Below are positions 2,640 through 19,580 of a stretch of DNA of 64,000 bases, in pieces. The notes under the pieces were generated by a model. It did no database searches, was not told where the DNA came from, and was given only the letters and a program-made list of their open reading frames with translations. This stretch comes from Candidatus Latescibacterota bacterium (GTDB taxonomy: Bacteria > Latescibacterota > UBA2968 > UBA8231), in contig OZ220089.1 in the NCBI GenBank assembly GCA_964291625.2, forward strand, positions 2,624,001-2,688,000, written 5' to 3'. Every line of letters begins with the position of its first letter. Positions within the stretch are counted from its first letter, which is position 1. A program made the position numbers and the translations under genes.

Positions 2640-2716
2640 GGGCGATTAGCTCAGCTGGTTAGAGTGCCTGCTTGACATGCAGGAGGTCGCTGGTTCAATT
2701 CCAGCATCGCCCACCA
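2640..2716 (+). tRNA. tRNA-Val (anticodon GAC)
   Basis: Cloverleaf: acceptor GGGCGAT/ATCGCCC, D-arm GCTC/GAGT, anticodon stem CCTGC-TTGACAT-GCAGG, T-arm GCTGG-TTCAATT-CCAGC, encoded CCA. Confidence 0.97.
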
Positions 2717-9914: not shown

Positions 9915-10367
9915 ATGCTCACAGCGTGGATCGTCGCGGGCGCGATCATGATCCTGCTGGAGTTGTTCCTGCCCGGAATGGTGCTCGGCTTTCTCGGGTC
10001 GAGCGCCCTGATCGTGGCCGCCCTCATCTGGCTGGGCTGGATCGACAGCCTGATCTCGGCCCTCACCACCTGGTTCATCCTCTCCCTCGTCCTGCTCCTG
10101 AGTCTGCGCGGCCTGTTCCTCCGCTTCGTCGGGGGCAGGTCCGAGCGCCAGTCCACCGACGAGGAGGAGGATGCCTACGGCACGGTCGTGGACGTGGTGG
10201 AGAGGATCTCACCGGACCGGGCGGGACGGATCCACTACCGGGACGCCACCTGGCAGGCGATCTGCCATGATCGCACCATCGAGGCCGGAGAGAAGGCGAT
10301 CCTCGCCTATCGCGAGAACCTCGCGTGGGTCGTCGAGCCCGCCGGGCTGGAGGAAAGCGATCCTTGA
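9915..10367 (+). CDS. NfeD family protein (short, OB-fold)
   Basis: ILLELFLPG TM hairpin, C-terminal GRIHYRDATWQA; directly upstream of SPFH genes. Confidence 0.85.
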   Translation: MLTAWIVAGAIMILLELFLPGMVLGFLGSSALIVAALIWLGWIDSLISALTTWFILSLVLLLSLRGLFLRFVGGRSERQSTDEEEDAYGTVVDVVERISPDRAGRIHYRDATWQAICHDRTIEAGEKAILAYRENLAWVVEPAGLEESDP

Positions 10368-10384
10368 AACGGGAGAGTTGAGCC

Positions 10385-11317
10385 ATGCCGCTTCTGACCT
10401 ACTTCACGATCCTGGTGCTGATCGCCCTGTTCGTGGTGCTCAAGACGTTCGTCGTCGTGCCCATGCGCGAGGCGGTCATCGTCGAGCGCCTGGGCAAGTT
10501 CCGGGCGGTCCTGCCGCCGGGGTTCCACTTCCTCATCCCCTTCTGCGACCGCATCGCCTACCGCCACGAGACCCGCGAGCAGGTGATCGACGTCCCCAGC
10601 CAGGCCTGCATCACCCGCGACAACATCCAGGTCGAGGTCGACGGTCTGGTCTACCTGCAGGTGCTCGACCCCGAGCGGGCCAGCTACGGCATCGAGGACT
10701 ACCGCCGCGCCAGCGTCAACCTGGCGCAGACGACGATGCGGGCCGAGATCGGCAAGCTGACCCTGGGCCAGTGCTTCTACGAGCGAGAGTCCCTGAACGA
10801 GACGATCGTGCAGGAGATCGACAAGGCGTCGAACCCCTGGGGCATCAAGGTGCTGCGCTACGAGCTGCGGAACATCACGCCCTCGGCCAACGTGGTGAAC
10901 ACCCTGGAGAAGCAGATGGAGGCGGAGCGCGAGAAGCGCGCCGAGATCACCCGCGCCGCCGCCGAGAAGGAGTCCACCATCAACCTCTCCGAGGGCGAGC
11001 GCCAGGAGGAGATCAACATCTCGGAGGGCGAGAAGCAGCGCCGGATCAACGTCGCCAAGGGCCGGGCGGAGGCGATCTCCATCATCGCCGAGGCCACCGC
11101 CGAGGGCACCGAGCGGATCGCCGCCGCGGTCCAGAAGGAAGGGGGGTCGGCGGCGCTGAAGATGCAGCTGGTGGAGGAGTACATCGAGATGATCAGCGAG
11201 ATCGCGGGAAAGTCCAACGTCTCCGTCGTGCCCCTGGAGCTGGCCCGGATCAAGGGCTTCTTCGAGGGGCTGGGCGAGGTCTCCGGTGGCACGCCGACCC
11301 AGAAGAAGGGAGCCTGA
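10385..11317 (+). CDS. SPFH/band 7 (stomatin-like, paraslipin) protein
   Basis: VERLGKF, PGFHFLIPF, ITRDN..VDG, LAQTTMR, WGIKVLRYE, coiled-coil AERxKRA. Confidence 0.92.
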   Translation: MPLLTYFTILVLIALFVVLKTFVVVPMREAVIVERLGKFRAVLPPGFHFLIPFCDRIAYRHETREQVIDVPSQACITRDNIQVEVDGLVYLQVLDPERASYGIEDYRRASVNLAQTTMRAEIGKLTLGQCFYERESLNETIVQEIDKASNPWGIKVLRYELRNITPSANVVNTLEKQMEAEREKRAEITRAAAEKESTINLSEGERQEEINISEGEKQRRINVAKGRAEAISIIAEATAEGTERIAAAVQKEGGSAALKMQLVEEYIEMISEIAGKSNVSVVPLELARIKGFFEGLGEVSGGTPTQKKGA

Positions 11318-11318
11318 C

Positions 11319-12248
11319 ATGTCGACCGTCTTCGAGATCTTCAACTTCACCGTCTGGGGCGTTCTGCTCCTGGTCCTGATCGTCATGTTCCTGCGCTCGA
11401 TCCGGCTGGTGCCGACCCAGTCGGCGTACGTCGTCGAGCGGCTCGGCCAGTACTCCAGGACGCTGAATCCCGGTTTTCACGCCCTGGTGCCCTTCATCGA
11501 AAGGGTGGCCTTCATCCGCGACCTCAAGGAGGAGACCGTGGACGTGCCGCCCCAGGAGTGCTTCACCCGGGACGAGGTCCAGGTCGAGGTGGACGGCGTC
11601 CTCTACATCTCGGTCACCGACCCGGTGAAGGCCAGCTACGGGGTGACCAACTACTCCTTCGCCGCCATGCAACTGGCGCAGACGACGACCCGCTCCGTCA
11701 TCGGCACCCTCGAGCTCGACCGCACCTTCGAGGAGCGCGACCTGATCTCGGCCAAGGTCGTGGAGGTGCTGGAGAGGTCGGGGGAGACCTGGGGGATCCG
11801 CGTCCACCGCTACGAGATCAAGAACCTGTCGCCGCCGCCGACGGTGAAGGACGCCATGGAGAAGCAGGTCACCGCCGAGCGCGACCGCCGCGCCATCGTG
11901 GCCCAGTCGGAGGGCGACAAGCAGAGCCGCATCAACACCTCGGAGGGCCGGCGCCTGGAGCTGATCAACCGCTCGGAGGGCGAGATGCAGCGCACCATCA
12001 ACGAGGCCCAGGGCCAGGCCGAGGAGGTCCGGGCCATCGCCCACGCGACGGCCGAGTCGATCGAGAAGATCGCGGCCTCGATCAGCGTCGCCGGCGGCGC
12101 CCAGTCGGTGCACCTGCAGCTGGCGGAGCGCTACCTGAAGAGGCTGCGTGCTCTGGCCGACGGCAAGACGGACGTGCTCCTGCCCGTGGACCTGGCCAAC
12201 CCTCAGCAGCTGCTGGACGCCATCGAGTTGCGCGGGCCTGACGGATAG
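11319..12248 (+). CDS. SPFH/band 7 (stomatin-like) protein, second paralog
   Basis: VERLGQY, PGFHALVPF, LAQTTTRSVIG, WGIRVHRYEI; ATG 1 bp after the previous stop. Confidence 0.92.
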   Translation: MSTVFEIFNFTVWGVLLLVLIVMFLRSIRLVPTQSAYVVERLGQYSRTLNPGFHALVPFIERVAFIRDLKEETVDVPPQECFTRDEVQVEVDGVLYISVTDPVKASYGVTNYSFAAMQLAQTTTRSVIGTLELDRTFEERDLISAKVVEVLERSGETWGIRVHRYEIKNLSPPPTVKDAMEKQVTAERDRRAIVAQSEGDKQSRINTSEGRRLELINRSEGEMQRTINEAQGQAEEVRAIAHATAESIEKIAASISVAGGAQSVHLQLAERYLKRLRALADGKTDVLLPVDLANPQQLLDAIELRGPDG

Positions 12249-12340
12249 CGCTGTCGGCCGCGGGGCCACGACTCGACACCACTCCCGCGGGCAGGGCGCC
12301 CCCGGCGGTCGGCGGGTGGGGAGCCGCCAGGGGCTGACGG

Positions 12341-15300
12341 TCACTGGTCGGAGAGTCCGACCAGCAGCCGCGAGTACTCGTCCTCCAGCGGATCGACCTC
12401 GCCCCGGAGGGCCGCCCGCGCGAAGACGATGCCCGGCCGCTCGACACGGCGGGCCCGGGCCAGCACGCCGAAACCCTCCGTCCCGGAGCCCCGCTGGCCC
12501 TCGCCGAGGGACTCGAACTCCGACAGGACGCGGAACAGGCCGCGCCGGGCGCCGACCACCCTGGCCAGCACCTCGGGCGCGGTGAGCCCCTCCCGCCAGG
12601 AGCGGCGGACCCCGAGGAGCCGGCCCTCGATGTCACGCACGAGTCCGCCCGGCCCCACCAGGGTCGTGAGCTGATGGACCGTGGCCCGGGCGCCGCTGTG
12701 ACACAGCAGGGCGGCGGCGCCAAGGTCGTCGTCGTCGTAGTCGCGGAAGCCGGCGATAGTCGCCAGGGCCTCCTCGGCGCAGGCCTGCCACTGCGGCGCG
12801 TCGTCCCCTTCCGGAAGGGCGGGCAGGTCGAGGGTGTGGCCGATGAAGGGGCCGATGGAGGCGCCTTCCCCGCGGGCGGCTTCGAACCCCAGCCGCATCA
12901 GTTCCGCGGCCACGCCCAGGGCCGCCCGCTCCCCCTCGGCGGCCAGCACCTCCCGCAGCAGCCTCGAGGCCGCCGCCCGCGTGAGGAGTCCGCCCTCGAG
13001 TTCCGGTTCCCGCCCCGCGGCCTCCGCGATCCTCTTCCGGCCCGCCGCCGAGCGGCCGAGGCAGGCGAGCCCGAAGAGGGCGTCCATGCCCGGCAGCAGG
13101 TCCTCCAGGAGATCGGGATCCCGGGCCAGGTGGGCGGCGATGGACAGCCGCTCGCGGGTCTCGCCCTGGGCCATCTCCGTGAGGGGGAGGAAGACGGCCG
13201 CCTGGTCGCCGTCGAAGTCGACGTCCAGCAGGCCGCAGGCCAGGGGGCAGAGGCGGATGGCATGGCCCGGGACCGGCAGGGGCCGGAAGGCCAGCATCGC
13301 CGTGGGGCTGACGGATGGAGCGTGATTGAGGATGATCCAGTGGGCCTCCATGGTGGCGGCGAGGGCGGCCCCGGCCTCGGAGAAGCGCCTGCTGACCGCT
13401 TCGGGATCCCCCAACTCGCGCGCCGCCAGCGGCCCGAAGAGGCTCCAGGCCATCTCCTCCGGCAGACCGATCCGGTCGGCCGCCAGGTCGCTTCCGGGGA
13501 CGATTACGGCGCGGCCGCTGAAGAGCACATTCTCATCCCGCCCCGGCTCCGGGGCCGGCGCCAGTCCGTCGTACAGGGCCGACACGGCGGCGGCCAGGTC
13601 GTCCCGGGCCGCGGCTGCCAGGGGCTCGGGAGCCTTATCCTTCAGCAGCCGCGCGAGCCGGGCGTTGGCGGCGGCGACCCCGGGATACCCGGCGGCCTCC
13701 TCCGCGTTGCAGACCTCGGACAGGGTCTCCCCCGGCAGCCACGGGTGGGGGACGCCGGCGGCCAGGGACAGCGTCGGCCCCGGGTGTGGTTCCAGCCGGA
13801 AGGCGACGCCCCCGGCGCCGGCTTCGGCGCGGATTCCGGCCTGCGCCAGCCCAGCCGCCAGGGCGGCGAAGGCGGGTGAGGGGGTGGTCGCCGGCTCGAC
13901 CGGTCCGGCGGCGGCCCTGCCGGCCAGGGAACCCGCGTCGCCGCGCCGGGTGGAGCAGGTGTTGGTCAGCTCCCGGATCACCGCGGGTGCGCCGGCCTCG
14001 GCCAAGGCCCGCACCTCCATCACCCCCAGGCGCTGGCCCCTGTCGTCCGGGTGGACGGCGGCCCTCAGCTTCGGGCGCGCGCGGTGCAGCGTGCAGCCCC
14101 AGTAGACCCATCCGGCCGTGGCCGGCCGCCGCAGGGGCGTGCCGCCGAGGGTCAGCCTGGTCATGCCGTCGGCGCGCAGGCCGCTGCCCCGAAGCAGGTC
14201 CCGCAGCTGCTCGTCCGAGGGCGCCTCGAAGGGCGGCACCACGGCGGGCTCCCCCCGCAGGAGGGCCGCGTGGCCGAGGGCGGCCTCCCGGACCAGCCCC
14301 ATGACCCAGCGGGACGGGATGCCCGAGAAGCTGAAGACCAGCTCCACGGGGGTGCCGTCCGGCAGCCGCGGCATCTCCTCGTCGGGCGCCACCCGCGACA
14401 CGACGCCCTTGACCCCGTGCCGGTTGCTGAGCTTGTCGCCGGCTTCGAGGGGGTCCGGGCAGGCGAGCTTGCGGGCGCCGGACCGGCTGACCAGCAAGGC
14501 GTCGTCGAAAGCGTCGCCGTCCCAGGAGACCAGGGCCGTGAGGAGGTTCCGGCCGCACCAGAAGTCCGGCGCCGTCGGCTCGAGGCCGGTCCGCACCAGG
14601 GCCGGCTCCCTCTCGGCGGGCGCCAGCCACTGGCGCATCATGTTGGCGCCCATGAGCACGCGGTTGCCGTCGTCGTTCTCGAGGAAGGGGACGCAGGCGC
14701 CGGAGATGCCCAGTCCCTCCGCGGGCTGCGCGTCGACGATCACCAGCCGGCGGCCTCGGATCTCCGCTCCCCGGGAAATCGTCAGGACGCGGCCGATGTT
14801 CGGTCCTTCCGGGGTCTCGAAGGGGCAGGTGCGGCCGAAGTGGGCCGGGGTGAACACCTCCTGGCGGCCGGGGACCAGGAGCCGGCGCAGGTGCGCGGCC
14901 CGGGACAGCCAGTTGGTGTCGTCGAGCCGCTCGCCGCAGGAGGCCAGGAAGGCCTGGAACCAGTCCCCCAGAGGCGCCAGGGTCCGCAGGAGGGACCCGT
15001 CGAGGGGGGTGTGCTCGGGGACCTGGCCCAGGCGGGCCTCGATGAAGGTGGAGAGCCGGTCGCCGAGACAGCCGATGCGCGCCTCGGCCAGGTCGTCGCG
15101 GTCGGCCACGGGAGGCACGACCAGCTCGACGCCGCCCGAGGGGTCGCGCTCCCCCCCGGGGATCGTCCTCGGAGGCGGCAGGCTGGGACTGGCCTCCGCC
15201 ACCCGGAAGACGCCCTCTTCGTCCGGCGCGGGCAGCCCGTCGTATTCGACCTCGAAGTCCCCCTCGACCGAGGGTCCGCCGAGGACGATCCGGCAGGCGT

Positions 15301-15427
15301 GCTCGCCGGCCCCTTCGGCGCGGTAGCTGCTCACCCCCAGCCGTGCGGCCAGCAGCTCGGGAAGGCGGCGGTGCAGGAAGTCGTCGAAGGAGGCCTTGTG
15401 CCACGGGTTGGCCGGCGTCGTTCTCAT
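12341..15427 (-). CDS. Miniature fused DNA-directed RNA polymerase beta-beta'-like protein (1028 aa)
   Basis: Colinear RpoB motifs (CPFETPEGPNIG; VPFLENDDGNRVLMGANMMRQ; GDKLSNRHGVKGVVS; GIPSR; GQRLGVMEV) followed by RpoC motifs (FSGRAVI..GLPEEMA; LNHAP; DVDFDGDQ; SGAR; REGL..GARRGL; RGEVDPL..LLVG). Confidence 0.93.
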   Translation of the reverse strand: MRTTPANPWHKASFDDFLHRRLPELLAARLGVSSYRAEGAGEHACRIVLGGPSVEGDFEVEYDGLPAPDEEGVFRVAEASPSLPPPRTIPGGERDPSGGVELVVPPVADRDDLAEARIGCLGDRLSTFIEARLGQVPEHTPLDGSLLRTLAPLGDWFQAFLASCGERLDDTNWLSRAAHLRRLLVPGRQEVFTPAHFGRTCPFETPEGPNIGRVLTISRGAEIRGRRLVIVDAQPAEGLGISGACVPFLENDDGNRVLMGANMMRQWLAPAEREPALVRTGLEPTAPDFWCGRNLLTALVSWDGDAFDDALLVSRSGARKLACPDPLEAGDKLSNRHGVKGVVSRVAPDEEMPRLPDGTPVELVFSFSGIPSRWVMGLVREAALGHAALLRGEPAVVPPFEAPSDEQLRDLLRGSGLRADGMTRLTLGGTPLRRPATAGWVYWGCTLHRARPKLRAAVHPDDRGQRLGVMEVRALAEAGAPAVIRELTNTCSTRRGDAGSLAGRAAAGPVEPATTPSPAFAALAAGLAQAGIRAEAGAGGVAFRLEPHPGPTLSLAAGVPHPWLPGETLSEVCNAEEAAGYPGVAAANARLARLLKDKAPEPLAAAARDDLAAAVSALYDGLAPAPEPGRDENVLFSGRAVIVPGSDLAADRIGLPEEMAWSLFGPLAARELGDPEAVSRRFSEAGAALAATMEAHWIILNHAPSVSPTAMLAFRPLPVPGHAIRLCPLACGLLDVDFDGDQAAVFLPLTEMAQGETRERLSIAAHLARDPDLLEDLLPGMDALFGLACLGRSAAGRKRIAEAAGREPELEGGLLTRAAASRLLREVLAAEGERAALGVAAELMRLGFEAARGEGASIGPFIGHTLDLPALPEGDDAPQWQACAEEALATIAGFRDYDDDDLGAAALLCHSGARATVHQLTTLVGPGGLVRDIEGRLLGVRRSWREGLTAPEVLARVVGARRGLFRVLSEFESLGEGQRGSGTEGFGVLARARRVERPGIVFARAALRGEVDPLEDEYSRLLVGLSDQ

Positions 15428-15428
15428 G

Positions 15429-16034
15429 TCAGTCTTCCTCCCAGTCGATCCCCAGCTCGCGCCAGGATCGAGCGATCTGTTTGCGGGCGTGGTGGATCCG
15501 GGACTTCACCGTGCCCTCGGGTATGCCCAGCTCCAAAGCGGCCTGGCGAGTGTTCATGTTGCCGTCGTAGATCAGCCGGATGACCTTGCGCCGGTCCTCC
15601 GGCAGGCGCGTCACCAGGCCGCGCAGCAGCCGCCGGCGCTCCGCCAGGGCCAGGACCTCGTCGGGCGGAAGGGTGGAGGCGTCGATCATCCATTCCGGCA
15701 CCCGCTCCTCCCTCCCCTCCTCTCCCTCCATGGCGGGGGGAGGCTGCAGCGGCTGCTCGTGACGGCGCCGGACCGAGCGGATGTGGTTGAGGGCCAGGTT
15801 CGTGGCGATGCGCAGCAGCCAGGCGAGCAGGGGGCCCTCGCCCTTCCACTGTCCGGCGCGGTGCCACAGACGGAGGAAGACCTCCTGACCGACGTCGGCG
15901 GCGTCCTCGTCATGGCGATGGATGCGCCGCAGGTGACGCTGCACATCGGCGCGGTAGCGCTCGAAGAGCTTGGCGAAGTCCTCCTGCCGCCCCTCGATCA
16001 CCCCGCGGACCAGCTCCTCGTCGCTCTTCCCCAT
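15429..16034 (-). CDS. ECF-subfamily sigma-70 factor
   Basis: SDEELV, region 2 DAADVGQEVFLRLW..WLLRIATN, region 4 LPEDRRKV..LGIPEGTVKSRIHHAR; RBS GGAGG. Confidence 0.93.
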   Translation of the reverse strand: MGKSDEELVRGVIEGRQEDFAKLFERYRADVQRHLRRIHRHDEDAADVGQEVFLRLWHRAGQWKGEGPLLAWLLRIATNLALNHIRSVRRRHEQPLQPPPAMEGEEGREERVPEWMIDASTLPPDEVLALAERRRLLRGLVTRLPEDRRKVIRLIYDGNMNTRQAALELGIPEGTVKSRIHHARKQIARSWRELGIDWEED

Positions 16035-16049
16035 CCGGCCTCCACCCGG

Positions 16050-16077
16050 TTGACACCGCCGGCGCCTGCCGGGTTCA
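16050..16077 (-). promoter_or_regulatory. Putative ECF-sigma (autoregulatory) promoter
   Basis: Minus strand TGAACC-16 nt-TGTCAA, ending 15 nt upstream of the sigma ATG; fits the AAC/GTC ECF consensus. Confidence 0.55.
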
Positions 16078-17421
16078 CCGGGCCGGGGGAGCCGGTTCCG
16101 CGATGCAGTAGAGGTGGTGTCGTCCCCGCAGATAGAGCTCGCCGCCGGCCAGGGCCGCCGAGGCGCTGAAGCTGTCGTCGAGGTGGTTGACGGCCAGGAC
16201 GGCGGGGGCGTCCGCGTGGCTGACGACCACGGTGGCGCCGTTGCGGCCGGTGACGTAGACGCGGCCGGCGGCGGCGACGGGAGAGGCGAAGACCCGGTCG
16301 AGGCCCTTCAACCGCATCGGCCCCGGCCGGTCCCCCCCGGTCCGGGCGTCGACGCGGGTGAGGATGTTCTGGAAGTGGCGGACGAAGTAGAGGGCGTCGC
16401 CGTAGAGCAGGAGGGAGGGGACGTACGGCGCCCCCCGGGTGCGGCTCCAGGCGGCCCGGCGGCTGCGGCTGTCCTCGCCCTCGGAGGGTTGGAGGGGAAT
16501 CGCCAGCACCGCCTGCCGGTCGTAGCTGCTCCCCGCGAAGACGAGGCCGAAGCCGGCCACCGGCGTGGCGACCACGTTCTCCACCGAGAGCCCCGGACAC
16601 TCCCAGATCCTGCGGCCGTCGGCGAGGTCGTAGCCGCGCACTCCCCCGGAGCCGCTGACCACGACCTGGGGCCGGCCGCCGGCCTCGGTGACGATGGGGG
16701 TGGTCCAGGACGAGGCCGGTGCGCGGGGGCTCTTCCAGCGGAGGGCGCCCGTCCCCTTGTCGAAGGCGGCGAGGAAGGACTCCCCCTCGTGGTCCCAATT
16801 GACGATCAGAGCCCCGCCGGCGACCGCCGGCGAGCTGCCTTCGCCGTGGCCGTGGAGCGGCTCCAGGGGGCCGAGGTCCAACTCCCACAGCAGCTCCCCA
16901 TCGAGATCGAGGCCGTAGATCCCGTGGGAGCCGAAGGAGGCGACCAGGTGCTCGCCGTCGGTCACCGCCGAGGCGGAGGCCAGGCTCGCCGTGTAGTGGC
17001 CGCCGGCGCGGGGCAGGGCCTCGCGCACCACCCGCTGCCAGAGGACCTGTCCCGTGCGGCGGTCCAGGGCGAGGACGACGAACCGGTGGCGGTGAGTGAC
17101 CGGCCGTTCGTCGTGGCTGCCCGGCAGGCCGCTGAGCTTCGGACGCAGAGGTTCGCCGTAGGGGACGGCGGCGGTGATGAAGATCCGGTCGCCCCAGACC
17201 ACCGGCGTCGAGTGGCCGCCGCCGGGAAGCGCCGCCTTCCAGCGCAGGTTGCGGGTCTCGCTCCACTCGAGCGGTGGATCGGCGTGGGGTGCGGCGCCGG
17301 TGCCCAGGGGGCCGCGCCAGGCGGGCCAGAAGCGGTCCCCATCGGTCTCCGGCTCGCCGGAGGCCGCGGTCAGCAGGCAGCAGACCACCGCGAGGGCCGC
17401 GGATGGGCCCATGCGGACCAT
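16075..17421 (-). CDS. PQQ-binding-like beta-propeller repeat protein (BamB-like), secreted
   Basis: Signal peptide, WPAWRGP..G, WSETRNLRWK..LPG.GHSTPVVWGDRIF, repeated SSP / W..G motifs. Confidence 0.88.
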   Translation of the reverse strand: MVRMGPSAALAVVCCLLTAASGEPETDGDRFWPAWRGPLGTGAAPHADPPLEWSETRNLRWKAALPGGGHSTPVVWGDRIFITAAVPYGEPLRPKLSGLPGSHDERPVTHRHRFVVLALDRRTGQVLWQRVVREALPRAGGHYTASLASASAVTDGEHLVASFGSHGIYGLDLDGELLWELDLGPLEPLHGHGEGSSPAVAGGALIVNWDHEGESFLAAFDKGTGALRWKSPRAPASSWTTPIVTEAGGRPQVVVSGSGGVRGYDLADGRRIWECPGLSVENVVATPVAGFGLVFAGSSYDRQAVLAIPLQPSEGEDSRSRRAAWSRTRGAPYVPSLLLYGDALYFVRHFQNILTRVDARTGGDRPGPMRLKGLDRVFASPVAAAGRVYVTGRNGATVVVSHADAPAVLAVNHLDDSFSASAALAGGELYLRGRHHLYCIAEPAPPAR

Positions 17422-17423
17422 TC

Positions 17424-19520
17424 TCAGACCACGGGGGGCGGGTCCGCTCTCCGTGCGGGCTCGGGATCGGCCAGGCGCAACAGGTCCCGCCGGGCGGAGG
17501 ACTGCGCCACCCGCACCCGCAGGACCTGGCCGGGCGCGGCCTGCAGCCGCTGCCCCCGGGGGGCGGGGACGTGGCACGCCACCGGGCCCTCGGGCAGCAG
17601 GACCAGGTGGCCGGGCCCGCGCGGCTCGGCGACCACGCACTGCAGCCGCGCCTTGTCCCCAAGGCTTTCGAGCCATTTGAGCGTCCAGTAGCGGCGGCTG
17701 CAGCGGCGCACGCGCTCCGCCGTCTCCCGGGCCTCGCGCGTCTCCAGCAGGATGCGCTCCAGGTCCTCTGCCGTCAGGGGGTCGGAGCGCCGGCCCGCGA
17801 TCCACAGCAGCTGCCGCTGCATGGCCAGGTCGACGTAGCTCGACAGGGGGCCGGCGCCCGGAGCGCAGGCCGGAAGTCCGAGACCCGCGTGGGGGGCGGG
17901 GGACGTCCCGAGCCTCTCGCGCGGGGTCCCGCTCTCGTGCAGATGGGTGCGGAGGACCTCGGCCGACGTGGAGTCGGCGGCGAGGGGGACGCCGGACTCG
18001 GCGGGCGGGGCCTCGCGCACCGCGTGGATCGCGGGCGCCGCGTCGCGGCAGAGGCGGGCGATCGCTTCGGCGGCCAGCAGGCCCAGCTCCGAGTCGACGC
18101 GATCCTCAACCCCCTCCGCCGCCGGCTCCGCCCGTCCTTGACGGACCGCGATCCGGTCGGCGGGATGCAGTTGCTGCCAGGCCCCCGCCCGCCGCCGCCT
18201 CTGCCGCCGCCCCTCGGCCAGCGCCGCCAGGCGGCGCACCGGGGCGCTGCCCTCGCCGGCCGCGAGCGCCGCACGGGGCCGGGCGCGGCCCAGGGACAGC
18301 CGCACCTTCTGCGGCGCCAGCTCCCGGTCCAGGCGCACGCTCAGGATCAGGACGGGTCGGGCCTCGTCCGCCGTCAGCCGGCAGGCGTCGGTCAGATCCG
18401 GCGGCAGCATCGGGATCTCCCGCTCCAGCAGGCGCACGCTGAGTCCCCGGGCGGCGGCTTCCTGATCGATGGCGCCGCCGTCCTCCACCCACAGGGCCGG
18501 CACGGCCATGTGGATGTCGACGACGGTGTGGCCGAGCAGGCTCCGGCGGAGACGGTAGGCCCGCTGGCCGCAGCGGGTGACGCAGAGGCCCGCGCCCCAG
18601 CGTCGGCGGCCTGCCCACCCAGCGAGGACGGCCGAGGGGTCGAGGCCGCGCGCCGCTCTCTTCGCCGCCTCGGAGAATGCCACGGGCAGGCCGAGGCGGT
18701 GCAGCTCCAGGTTCTCGTCGGCGGACCAGTGACCCAGGCGGACGAGGACGTCGAAGGCGGCGTGGCTTCCGTGCAGGTTGGCAGCCTTCATCAGCCGGGC
18801 GGCCTCCGCGCTCGCCTCGCCCAGGGCGGCGGCCTCGAGCAGGTCCACCGCCGAGTCCGCCCCGACGGGACGGGGGCTGGATGGGTGCCCGTCGGCGACC
18901 CTTCGGACCCACGAGGCCAGCTCGGTCTGGCGGCCTTCCTCCCTCTCCTCGCGGGCCGAGGATGCCTCGATCCCCTCTACCGCCGCCGGGGAGCGGGGGC
19001 GCCAGCGGGCGCCGTGGCGCTCGAACCGGTGGCCGCGCCACAGGGCCCGGAGCATGCCGGCCCGGCGGCTGGCGTTCGGATCGCCGGGGTCGTGGAGCTC
19101 GACCAGATCGTCGAGCCGCCACTCGCCGCCCTCCGGGCCCCCCTCGAGAGCGACCTGCCAGAGGGCCGTGAGATCGACGGCGCCGCGGGCCTGCTCGCGC
19201 CTCCGGTCGATGCGGCGGAGGTCGGCCAGCGCCATCTCGGGGGTGTGCATCGACACGTACTCCGGGGATACGTCCACCACCTTGTCGCGGCGGAGGTGGA
19301 GCCGGCGGCCGTCGACGCCGACGACGTCGTAGCCCCTGCGGTTCTGCGGATCCCGGGCGAGGTAGCCGCACTGAAGCTGGCCGCCGCGGCGGAACTCGAG
19401 CACCGCGCCGGCGCGCTCGAGAGCGGGCTTCGCGCCGCGTTCGGCCTGCACCAGGCGCGCCACCTCCCGGCGGGAGGCGTCGTCGAGGGAGTTGGTCAGA
19501 TGTCGCGGCCAGCGGACCAT
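17424..19520 (-). CDS. RNB (RNase II/R)-family protein with degenerate catalytic motifs and S1-like C-terminus
   Basis: LLEREIPMLPP.L, PAPHAGLGL..GPLSSYVDLAMQRQL (cf. H.GL....TSPIRRY.DL..HR), RRYWTLKWL; the catalytic acidic D-x(7,8)-DD stretch is not visible. Confidence 0.7.
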   Translation of the reverse strand: MVRWPRHLTNSLDDASRREVARLVQAERGAKPALERAGAVLEFRRGGQLQCGYLARDPQNRRGYDVVGVDGRRLHLRRDKVVDVSPEYVSMHTPEMALADLRRIDRRREQARGAVDLTALWQVALEGGPEGGEWRLDDLVELHDPGDPNASRRAGMLRALWRGHRFERHGARWRPRSPAAVEGIEASSAREEREEGRQTELASWVRRVADGHPSSPRPVGADSAVDLLEAAALGEASAEAARLMKAANLHGSHAAFDVLVRLGHWSADENLELHRLGLPVAFSEAAKRAARGLDPSAVLAGWAGRRRWGAGLCVTRCGQRAYRLRRSLLGHTVVDIHMAVPALWVEDGGAIDQEAAARGLSVRLLEREIPMLPPDLTDACRLTADEARPVLILSVRLDRELAPQKVRLSLGRARPRAALAAGEGSAPVRRLAALAEGRRQRRRRAGAWQQLHPADRIAVRQGRAEPAAEGVEDRVDSELGLLAAEAIARLCRDAAPAIHAVREAPPAESGVPLAADSTSAEVLRTHLHESGTPRERLGTSPAPHAGLGLPACAPGAGPLSSYVDLAMQRQLLWIAGRRSDPLTAEDLERILLETREARETAERVRRCSRRYWTLKWLESLGDKARLQCVVAEPRGPGHLVLLPEGPVACHVPAPRGQRLQAAPGQVLRVRVAQSSARRDLLRLADPEPARRADPPPVV

Positions 19521-19528
19521 GGTCCCTG

Positions 19529-19580
19529 AGGGTATCCTCTCCACTTCGACAGTGTCAACCGCAATCCGAGGGCCTATAAT
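19529..19580. promoter_or_regulatory. Divergent sigma70-like promoter region
   Basis: Minus strand: TTGACA (19558-19553)-18 nt-TACCCT (19534-19529), 8 nt before ATG 19520. Plus strand: perfect TATAAT at 19575-19580, 14 nt before ATG 19595. Confidence 0.45.

Follow-up and report, generated by a model that had tools for sequence, protein, structure and literature searches.

The 64,000-nucleotide (nt) stretch of DNA analysed here (the window; positions 2,624,001 to 2,688,000 of contig OZ220089.1, assembly GCA_964291625.2, Candidatus Latescibacterota bacterium) holds a gene for a miniature RNA polymerase (RNAP)-like protein in which portions of subunits beta and beta' are joined in a single chain. 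The gene occupies 12341..15427 on the minus strand and runs open from its ATG to a stop codon at 12341-12343, giving 1028 codons with the beta blocks first and the beta' blocks after. Upstream of it on the same strand lies a gene for a sigma factor of the extracytoplasmic function (ECF) type, 201 amino acids (aa) in length, at 15429..16034 (Sigma70_r2 2e-14, Sigma70_r4_2 9e-14). The sigma stop codon is one base away from the ATG of the polymerase. This gene pair is preceded by an ECF-type promoter-like element, TGAACCCGGCAGGCGCCGGCGGTGTC, at 16052..16077 (minus strand), 17 bases upstream of the sigma start. The main new facts reported here are the obligate sigma partner of the polymerase and its conserved promoter.

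Polymerase gene, sigma partner and promoter

Pfam finds three domains in the 1028-aa protein: Rpb2_3 (residues 168-222, 6e-8), Rpb2_6 (327-443, 8e-26) and Rpb1_2 (695-759, 7e-16). The bacterial rpoB and rpoC models match it at 2e-45 and 2e-28, and scores are much higher with bacterial than with archaeal RNAP models. It remains far below the equivalog cut-offs (154.7 bits against 801.15 for TIGR02013, RpoB; 99.1 against 963.5 for TIGR02386, RpoC). With phmmer the protein matches beta chains in the PDB to 6e-41 and beta' chains to 2e-26, and aligning the family profile to the subunits of the genome itself with hhalign yields E 2.3e-46 for beta and 9.6e-31 for beta'. A preliminary description of this DNA had recognised RpoB blocks followed by RpoC blocks in one open reading frame (ORF). 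Every peptide quoted there is present in the translation, Pfam, phmmer and hhalign support the assignment, and the coordinates given for DVDFDGDQ and GDKLSNRHGVKGVVS lie within a few bases of 13202-13225 and 14396-14440. The AlphaFold2 model, for which the 35-sequence family alignment served as input, has a mean predicted local distance difference test score (pLDDT) of 89.3 and a predicted template modelling score (pTM) of 0.86. Its top fold matches in the PDB are bacterial and plastid beta and beta' chains (query TM-score, TMq, 0.3-0.4; E to 3e-22), each of which spans about half of the model.

The host genome (5.9 Mb in 2 contigs) also contains canonical genes for both subunits: rpoB, of 1278 aa, with six Pfam domains, and rpoC, of 1363 aa, with five RNAP domains. 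They are located on the other contig, with L10 and L7/L12 genes on one side and the S7 gene on the other (the rplJL-rpoBC context). The mini-protein is therefore an extra copy, and at 39% of the combined length of the own beta and beta' (1028 against 1278 + 1363 = 2641 aa) it comes close to the 40% estimated in the preliminary description, which had also correctly placed it outside the rpoBC ribosomal-protein context and had proposed the search for a separate rpoBC as a check. The codon-position GC content of the gene (0.78/0.55/0.93) is the same as that of adjacent genes, as expected from the host-like composition noted earlier.

Support for the contiguous assembly comes from sequencing run X1, of which a 3796-nt contig covers window positions 12525-16300 with zero differences; this support is not independent because X1 may be the source sample. 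Close variants of the locus are contained, piecewise, in sponge metagenomes, namely DNA run X3 and the metatranscriptome-library runs X2 and X22. These three leave parts of the polymerase gene uncovered, which carries no evidential weight. All four runs consist of contigs, so 5' ends, strand and expression level are unreadable. A 1070-nt contig of the X2 metatranscriptome library covers 15123-16185, i.e. the polymerase start, the entire sigma gene and the promoter, and hints at transcription of the locus. As the data are contigs and RNA libraries can contain DNA, transcription is hinted at rather than demonstrated. Most runs with parts of the locus are sponge metagenomes, among the small shares of the runs that were examined.

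The partner sigma consists of regions 2 and 4 alone and passes the ECF superfamily model TIGR02937 with 92.9 bits (cut-off 42.9). In its alignment, the linker that joins regions 2 and 4 carries a conserved P-x-W-M-I-D motif, and the protein ends in a W-E-E tail that is acidic. Of 80 loci kept from contigs of one genome per species, 15 correspond to the query along its length, one of them truncated where its contig ends; the remaining 65 are partial matches that we read as canonical rpoBC. In all 15 loci, labelled Latescibacterota, Chloroflexota, Poribacteria, Planctomycetota and Myxococcales, the gene immediately upstream, in the same orientation, encodes a sigma ortholog with 37-93% identity to that of the window. 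A scan of the phylum gives the same picture. Orthologs of the sigma score 251-319 bits, against at most 123 bits for generic ECF sigmas, and at 251 bits or more they occur in 60 of the 65 polymerase-positive genomes and in only 1 of the 103 negative ones, where the contig breaks off 374 bases away in the direction in which the polymerase would be expected. As to the other five positive genomes, two hold sigma pieces (G072, G141), one is cut by a contig end (G150), one has a deletion (G147) and one has no sigma at all (G144).

ECF operons usually, though not universally, carry an anti-sigma gene. Among the flanking genes of 15-16 loci, the polymerase gene is the sole conserved neighbour of the sigma, and a cognate anti-sigma was not seen in the operon. 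A search for fusions of sigma and polymerase among longer proteins, with the sigma as query, returned one unrelated match, which is weak evidence of their absence.

The promoter-like element is made up of a -35 TGAAC, 14 bases and CGGTGTC, a pattern that we take to be a typical ECF promoter; in the window its TGA is also the stop codon of the upstream gene. A single match of this kind is at chance level (27 of 100 shuffles), and the evidence lies in the conserved position and spacing across phyla. TGAAC-N14-CGGTGTC, matched in 11 or more of its 12 specified letters, is present within 160 nt upstream of the sigma in 38 of 40 evaluable loci (41 have an intact sigma match, 40 of them with upstream sequence). 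The sites represent 27 distinct sequences, many of the loci being close relatives, and the two loci without the element have the same variant. The N14 spacing is fixed across phyla. About 8-16 bases downstream comes a less strictly conserved stretch around GTAGAGG; its distance from the GTC stays constant, be the start codon 17 or at least 40 bases off.

At the family spacing, the exact promoter occurs once in the 5.9-Mb genome. Five other genomes yielded 12 exact matches against 0 for the reversed pattern, with none in genome G129; four of the 12 are sigma promoters and eight lie inside long ORFs without the downstream motif. A weight-matrix scan of the window genome was not decisive, since the own site scores 18.1 and six others score equal or higher (up to 22.2). 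No sigma-70-type promoter and no intrinsic terminator were found in window 11800-16500. The weight-matrix scan also picked up two near-identical ECF-promoter-like sites outside the window, 4.5 kb apart on the minus strand (C1:1820765-1820817 and C1:1825308-1825360), which are probably promoters of another ECF system. A contig of DNA run X3 has a 14-base insertion in the promoter spacer at window position 16067 that duplicates the -35 region, a strain variant that would alter the otherwise fixed spacing.

The compact length, which the preliminary description had singled out as a check, is shared by a whole family: of the best 120 matches in a word-indexed protein search, 117 have lengths of 1001-1092 aa, with 43-91% identity over at least 99% of the query, and three are shorter pieces. 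Their source names are nearly all 'hypothetical protein', and one JGI entry just lists three Pfam domains. Searching residues 1-150 against 1.84 billion cluster representatives gave 140 with E values of 0.001 or less; 55 have lengths of 943-1101 aa, a size that no other of the 140 exceeds, and the remaining ones measure 66-924 aa, as for short-contig fragments. Two clusters of family size in the ESM Atlas have 73 and 135 members. According to depositor labels the family extends over at least eight phyla (Gemmatimonadota, Latescibacterota, Chloroflexota, Poribacteria, Planctomycetota, Myxococcales, Hydrogenedentes and Armatimonadetes). Some labels clash: the relative with 91% identity is named Gemmatimonadaceae and the one with 86% Candidatus Latescibacterota, so at least one is doubtful. 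In more clusters of the ESM Atlas a single chain of 1164-1787 aa combines Rpb2_6 with Rpb1_2 (the name of one cluster includes inorganic pyrophosphatase), and further fused RNAP-like families of intermediate size thus exist in metagenomes.

Within the phylum the mini-polymerase is present in 65 of 168 genomes (39%), in 19 of 52 high-quality genomes and in 16 of 49 genera, in stop-free frames of 966-1244 aa; one genome has two copies. The window's genus has five positive genomes out of ten, its own included, with copies that are 86-91% and 46% identical. Polymerases that are 81% identical were found in two separate taxonomic families.

In some members of the phylum, sigma and polymerase are separated by a third gene of the same orientation, downstream of the single promoter. 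Nine fetched genomes have an MsbA-like ATP-binding cassette (ABC) exporter of 597 or 586 aa at this place (L190 1953-3746, L191 1833-3593, also L194-L200). Eight of them belong to one genus; the ninth comes from another taxonomic family, and there the polymerase is 81% identical to the copy of that genus and the exporter just 40%. The exporter matches MsbA-like families, none at a curated cut-off, and no substrate can be assigned to it. In three other genomes the inserted gene encodes a soluble protein of 396 aa (L192 1660-2850, also L201 and L202), which has no Pfam or NCBIfam match and no hydrophobic segments. Decayed cassettes occur as well. In L088 (G165) the sigma has an in-frame TGA at codon 104, for which reason the ratio of nonsynonymous to synonymous substitution rates (dN/dS) of 1.04 obtained for this copy was rejected as an artefact; in L207 (G141) the sigma is split in two pieces; and in L205 (G147) the promoter and the sigma start are fused to a polymerase without about 91 N-terminal residues.

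Retained and missing parts of the single-chain protein

Residues were mapped by BLAST and profile alignments against the genome's own beta and beta'. The first 145 residues (14993..15427, minus strand, as all following parts) form a domain specific to the family, without a Pfam match; in the model a conserved helix (8-30) is followed by a beta-sheet. This domain may be a remnant of the beta N-terminal domains. Its look-alikes in a language-model search are phage proteins with Rpb2_1/Rpb2_2, a weak lead.

From there on the order follows the canonical subunits. Residues 140-223 correspond to own beta 449-542 (the fork), residues 231-283 to 614-666, residues 288-320 to 758-790 (BLAST) and residues 321-538 to 1038-1271 of 1278 (BLAST 321-492 = 1038-1225; hhalign 328-538 = 1045-1271, E 2.3e-46). 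The fork region proper, Rpb2_3 at residues 168-222 (14762..14926), includes CPFETPEGPNIG and is supported by Pfam and by alignment to the own beta. Residues 288-538 (13814..14566) make up the beta double-psi barrel without its flap (the sandwich-barrel hybrid motif, SBHM, insert), followed by the entire beta C-terminal region, according to BLAST and hhalign. Conservation places the two catalytic-site lysines, K332 and K340, in GDKLSNRHGVKGVVS (residues 330-344, 14396..14440).

The beta' part, residues 578-973, aligns with own beta' 261-770 in a single alignment of 391 columns that takes in the clamp helices, switch 2, the DFDGD barrel, the funnel and the bridge helix. The clamp helices, a coiled coil at residues 581-622 (13562..13687; model helices 581-596 and 601-622), align to own beta' 264-304 and are conserved in the family. 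Pfam and alignments assign residues 633-760 (13148..13531) to the switch-2 motif FSGRAVI and the beta' double-psi barrel, with the Mg-binding triad D737/D739/D741 in DVDFDGDQ (residues 735-742, 13202..13225) identified by conservation. The funnel motif SGAR and the bridge helix (helix 950-980) follow at residues 900-980 (12488..12730), as indicated by beta'' models, alignments and the structural model. What is left is a short C-terminal tail, residues 985-1028 (12344..12475). It had been called region-H-like, and we find a weak likeness only (BLAST to beta' 1292-1315, 18.9 bits).

Deleted from the mini-protein are beta 1-450, in place of which the family-specific N-terminal domain of about 145 residues stands, beta 791-1037, beta' 1-260 (the zinc domain) and nearly all of beta' beyond the bridge helix (trigger loop, jaw). 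Own beta 791-1037, an insert in the beta barrel, is what we take to be the flap. The available part of PMC7824862 leads to the same identification. The beta lobes are gone too. Overall, three Pfam domains in the mini-protein stand against six in the own beta and five in the own beta'; those not matched are Rpb2_1, Rpb2_2, Rpb2_45, Rpb1_1, Rpb1_3, Rpb1_4 and Rpb1_5. The last of these is found at 744-1275 of the own beta'. Since it is unmatched in the mini-protein and only 48 residues come after the bridge helix, neither a trigger loop nor a jaw could be accommodated.

Conservation was assessed in 35 sequences, 44-91% identical to the window protein. Identical in 35/35 are D737, F738, D739, G740 and D741; G330, D331, K332, R336, G338 and K340; E204, E207, G208 and N210 of the ETPEGPN block; and N262, M263 and R265. 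The earlier statement that the three Mg-binding Asp and both beta lysines are retained thus holds throughout the family. A beta'-type barrel with the DxDGD loop and a beta-type barrel with the lysines (Rpb2 K979/K987) are both found, which are features of the two-barrel superfamily. Eight residues are described as invariant across two-barrel polymerases: the three Asp, Rpb2-D837, Rpb1-R446, Rpb1-P448 and the two Lys (Ruprich-Robert and Thuriaux; PMC2919709, in the sections available). The window protein carries seven of them. The eighth, at the R446 position, is His (NHAP), with Arg in the majority of the family, and the Rpb2-D837 position (FDD or FED) is Asp in 33 of 35 sequences. As markers of the DNA-dependent superfamily, section 9 of PMC2919709 lists switch-2 Rpb1-K332, funnel Rpb1 G750/K752 and Rpb2-R1020; the funnel marker motif SGAR is present in the window protein. 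The invariant catalytic residues, together with the confidently predicted fold, argue for an active nucleotide polymerase.

The mini-polymerase is under purifying selection: dN/dS is 0.29-0.35 in four comparisons with close relatives, two of which have identical values and probably stem from one genome. The preliminary description had proposed a domesticated, minimised RNAP paralog with a selected function. A minimised paralog under selection is what the constant length of the homologs, the invariant catalytic residues and these ratios point to. The 'domesticated' part, i.e. a foreign origin, is not borne out, given the far higher scores of bacterial than archaeal models and the lack of a phage or plasmid copy in the collections searched (see below).

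Interpretation of the gene pair and comparison with known systems

We consider it somewhat likelier than the contrary, with a probability of about 0.55, that the two proteins together form a holoenzyme, i.e. a transcription module made of a sigma and a single-chain core. The ECF-type sigma gene and a catalytically competent single RNAP core of 115 kDa would then be a self-contained two-gene module. Its sigma would recognise TGAAC-N14-CGGTGTC upstream of its own gene, and the operon would therefore be autoregulated. The sigma would dock on the retained clamp helices of the mini-core, so that the pair could initiate at its own promoter class independently of the host core; the outputs would be the operon itself and the cargo inside it (the ABC exporter or the 396-aa protein in some genomes). 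In canonical RNAP, the beta' clamp helices are the main docking site of sigma region 2. That these helices are kept despite the loss of most peripheral modules, and that the sigma is near-obligate and co-evolving, argues that it is the initiation factor of the mini-enzyme.

A complex prediction of mini-core residues 1-795 with the sigma scored 0.50 (0.53, 0.45 and 0.50 in individual runs), against 0.00 for the best of three controls. The runs share at least 76% of contacts, and the pLDDT of the partner is at least 68. The mark for this score was reached by 58 of 80 solved complexes and by 2 of 110 mismatched pairs; at scores up to 0.60 only 7 of the 80 solved complexes reached it, plus both passing mismatches, and these counts hold only roughly for the mini-core and sigma since custom alignments were used. 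The pass may come from likeness to solved sigma-core complexes.

A more far-reaching proposal, which we offer tentatively and at less than even odds, is a portable orthogonal expression platform: sigma and single-chain core would work without host core, alpha and omega and would express, from a private promoter, themselves and their cargo. Because the trigger loop, the flap and other modules targeted by regulators, many antibiotics or phage proteins are missing, such a platform would run during a shut-down of host transcription. In canonical RNAP several of the lost modules bind regulators and inhibitors. Given this loss of regulatory and inhibitor-binding modules and the exporter cargo, our leading guess for the role is a stress- or inhibitor-insulated expression unit.

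Several observations weigh against a sigma-dependent transcription module. The tool rates the complex score as 'weak support' and does not give the interface. Genome G144 has the polymerase (a 1047-aa frame, L193) without sigma or promoter motif. No second credible promoter turned up in the window genome or the five others, so that no regulon is visible beyond the module itself, which is odd for a transcription system. The RNA-library contig of run X2 extends 108 nt upstream of the promoter and hence does not indicate a start site. Selection at a dN/dS of about 0.3 means moderate rather than strong constraint. The active site also departs from the canonical pattern. The window clade has His at the Rpb1-R446 (NRAP) position, and the Asn of NADFDGD, which is Asp in the window protein, is replaced in some members by Asp, Gln or Glu. 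The arginine of GQR (the R1106 equivalent; Rpb2-R1020) is present in the window protein, as had been stated before, and variable across the family; of switch 2 the FSGR core is kept, with variation in the basic residues and loss of the upstream one in the window clade. The less fixed positions are those contacting the substrate sugar or the second metal. Because the R446, NADFDGD Asn, switch-2 and GQR positions vary, substrate or template may differ from canonical transcription.

A further point concerns the flap, to which sigma region 4 is anchored in the canonical holoenzyme. The deletion of this flap, while the promoter keeps the canonical ECF -35/-10 geometry, fits a sigma acting on the host core at least as well. 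The sigma would then be an ordinary autoregulated ECF factor of the host RNAP and the mini-polymerase its regulated product, a sigma-independent specialised nucleotide polymerase; its templates could be single-stranded DNA or RNA, primers or R-loops, like those of sigma-less single-chain enzymes. The missing lobes and jaw, which in the canonical enzyme hold downstream duplex DNA, agree with this, as do the varying sugar- and substrate-contact positions, the weak support for the complex and the retention of the polymerase without sigma in G144. A precedent is YonO, which works as a single chain and for which the available part of PMC5467207 gives no sigma. Nonetheless, we regard this explanation, and the proposed templates with it, as rather unlikely: the sigma is tightly tied to the polymerase (60/65 against 1/103 genomes), no further promoter for it can be recognised in the genome, the clamp helices have been kept and are conserved, and the usual ECF anti-sigma is not seen.

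The gene occupies the position at which ECF operons usually hold the anti-sigma, and it has kept the clamp helices. It might thus be argued that the protein is a non-catalytic mimic of the core, either a sink for the sigma or a decoy for RNAP-binding inhibitors, which the exporter within the cassette of nine fetched genomes would remove. The His in place of an 'invariant' Arg in the window clade would suit such a role; the yeast mutation rpb1-R446A, for its part, causes no growth defect (PMC2919709, section 9). A sigma binder would have no need of the Asp triad, both Lys and the fork and hybrid-binding blocks that are invariant in 35/35, and a 1000-aa fold would be a costly sink, which makes the mimic the most improbable of the explanations discussed here.

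Hardly more probable is an origin in a mobile element, be it a phage, a plasmid or another, of which the locus would be a remnant or passenger (such as a viral RNAP with its own sigma). It would account for the patchy distribution (65/168 genomes; 5/10 in the window's genus), the 46% and 86-91% identity of copies in the same genus, the 81%-identical polymerases in two taxonomic families and the decayed copies, and the phage look-alikes of the N-terminal domain are a weak lead in the same direction. Tblastn against 50,697 phage and 72,556 plasmid records, however, gave only partial matches, none of which reaches 80% of the query (24 phage records; 68 plasmid records, canonical rpoBC where annotated), and none of the best 80 viral-contig loci in IMG/VR is a whole-length match; most of these align over residues 180-967 with 22-27% identity, the remainder being partial matches of up to 39%. 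In PHROGs only full-size beta/beta' families were matched. With no whole-length copy found in these searches, we rejected a phage or plasmid origin, as we did a defence system, for which PADLOC reported 0 families for the polymerase, the sigma and two upstream genes. Neighbouring genes are ordinary and differ between loci, the GC content is host-like, and beside the loci examined no integrase or phage genes were seen, in line with the absence of phage neighbours noted in the preliminary description.

Among known systems, the canonical RpoB/RpoC pair shares with the mini-protein blocks that are 30-40% identical and in the same order, from fork to bridge helix, as well as a partner of the sigma-70 family. 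It differs in having two chains with 2641 aa, against one of 1028, and in its ribosomal-protein operon. Full-length beta::beta' fusions (NF007172 and NF011417, presumably those of Helicobacter and Wolbachia) likewise have beta and then beta' in one frame. Their profiles, however, count 2839-2890 positions, on which the mini-protein scores 136.4 against 5372 bits and 148.7 against 4632, and they are the only RNAP of the cell, whereas the mini-protein is an extra, reduced copy. Autoregulated ECF operons resemble the locus in an ECF-model sigma, an ECF-type promoter upstream of its own gene and a conserved downstream partner, which there is an anti-sigma and here a polymerase core.

The phage P23-45 reportedly has a tail-fused RNAP. 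A Caudovirales lineage with multisubunit-type beta and beta' RNAP is described in the part of PMC7481178 available to us. Like the mini-protein, these phage enzymes are reduced two-barrel polymerases; the viral-contig relatives that span residues 180-967 are only 22-27% identical, and the one viral locus opened (L098) has separate genes of 902 and 1000 aa. A 'minor tail protein' in BFVD aligns to the model over 1166 columns (TMq 0.38), and viral fold matches are weaker than cellular ones. YonO of the Bacillus prophage SPbeta, a processive DNA-dependent RNAP, is of the same single-chain two-barrel class, of about 100 kDa and without a trigger loop, and so demonstrates that an enzyme reduced this far can transcribe DNA processively (PMC5467207, in part). 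It is prophage-borne, has no Pfam match and has only the DxDGD stretch in common with the mini-protein (hhalign probability 0.3%, E 0.21, 23 columns), so that it is far more diverged, as had been supposed.

The nearest described architecture is Orf6 of the yeast killer plasmids. According to section 5 of PMC2919709, Orf6 of pGKL2 is an Rpb2::Rpb1 fusion of 982 aa. As far as that source was available, Orf6 has the same order of subunits, a near-equal size, about half of each subunit deleted and no trigger-loop homology, and it keeps both barrels, fork, hybrid binding, switch 3 and bridge helix. It differs by its eukaryotic cytoplasmic linear plasmid, its eukaryotic-type subunits and the lack of a sigma, a comparison made by description only (PMC2919709). 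The earlier suggestion that the architecture is undescribed therefore needs this qualification. For the bacterial, sigma-linked family it stands: we found no description of a miniature beta-beta' protein of this kind in the full-text literature, subscription papers and supplements being outside our reach, and the main text of the ECF reclassification paper has 0 occurrences of rpoB, rpoC, Rpb and 'beta subunit' (PMC7826278).

A second, radically reduced core with a dedicated sigma would change the picture of bacteria with one core that is commonly taught. If the portable platform proposed above is real, it would to our knowledge be the first cellular RNAP that is a single chain and depends on a sigma, and also the smallest of the known sigma-dependent RNAPs. 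The reduced core would serve as an experiment of nature on what sigma-dependent initiation requires of beta and beta', would connect the canonical enzyme with YonO-like and plasmid single-chain enzymes, and could provide synthetic biology with a compact orthogonal transcription system of two proteins and a defined 26-bp promoter. If instead the sigma serves the host core and the polymerase acts on other templates, the family would represent a bacterial nucleic-acid polymerase of a new kind, a finding of interest too.

Neighbouring genes and further observations

No other neighbour is conserved across phyla. All-against-all clustering of the ORFs at 16 loci returned, besides sigma and polymerase, only shadow ORFs and synteny confined to Poribacteria. 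Pfam matches of ten flanking genes reveal no theme (oxidoreductases, a TrmB regulator, a PD-(D/E)XK nuclease, an ECF sigma with tetratricopeptide repeats, and four without a match).

Upstream of the gene pair, the window contains a pyrroloquinoline quinone (PQQ)-like beta-propeller gene and an RNB-domain (RNase II/R-like) gene with a double helix-turn-helix (16075-19544, minus strand). As called, their ORFs overlap by about 380 bases, and one of the two starts is therefore probably located further downstream. On the other side, an NfeD gene and two SPFH/Band-7 genes (9915-12248, plus strand) converge on the 3' end of the polymerase gene; the gap of 92 bases in between shows no intrinsic terminator pattern. 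The RNB, PQQ-propeller and SPFH genes recur beside the cassette only in the 86%-identical locus.

One X1 contig has a joint that skips 2351. As just 20 letters lie on its shorter side, we took it as another organism or a repeat. The sole Rfam match in the window is a tRNA gene at 2640-2713 (plus strand).

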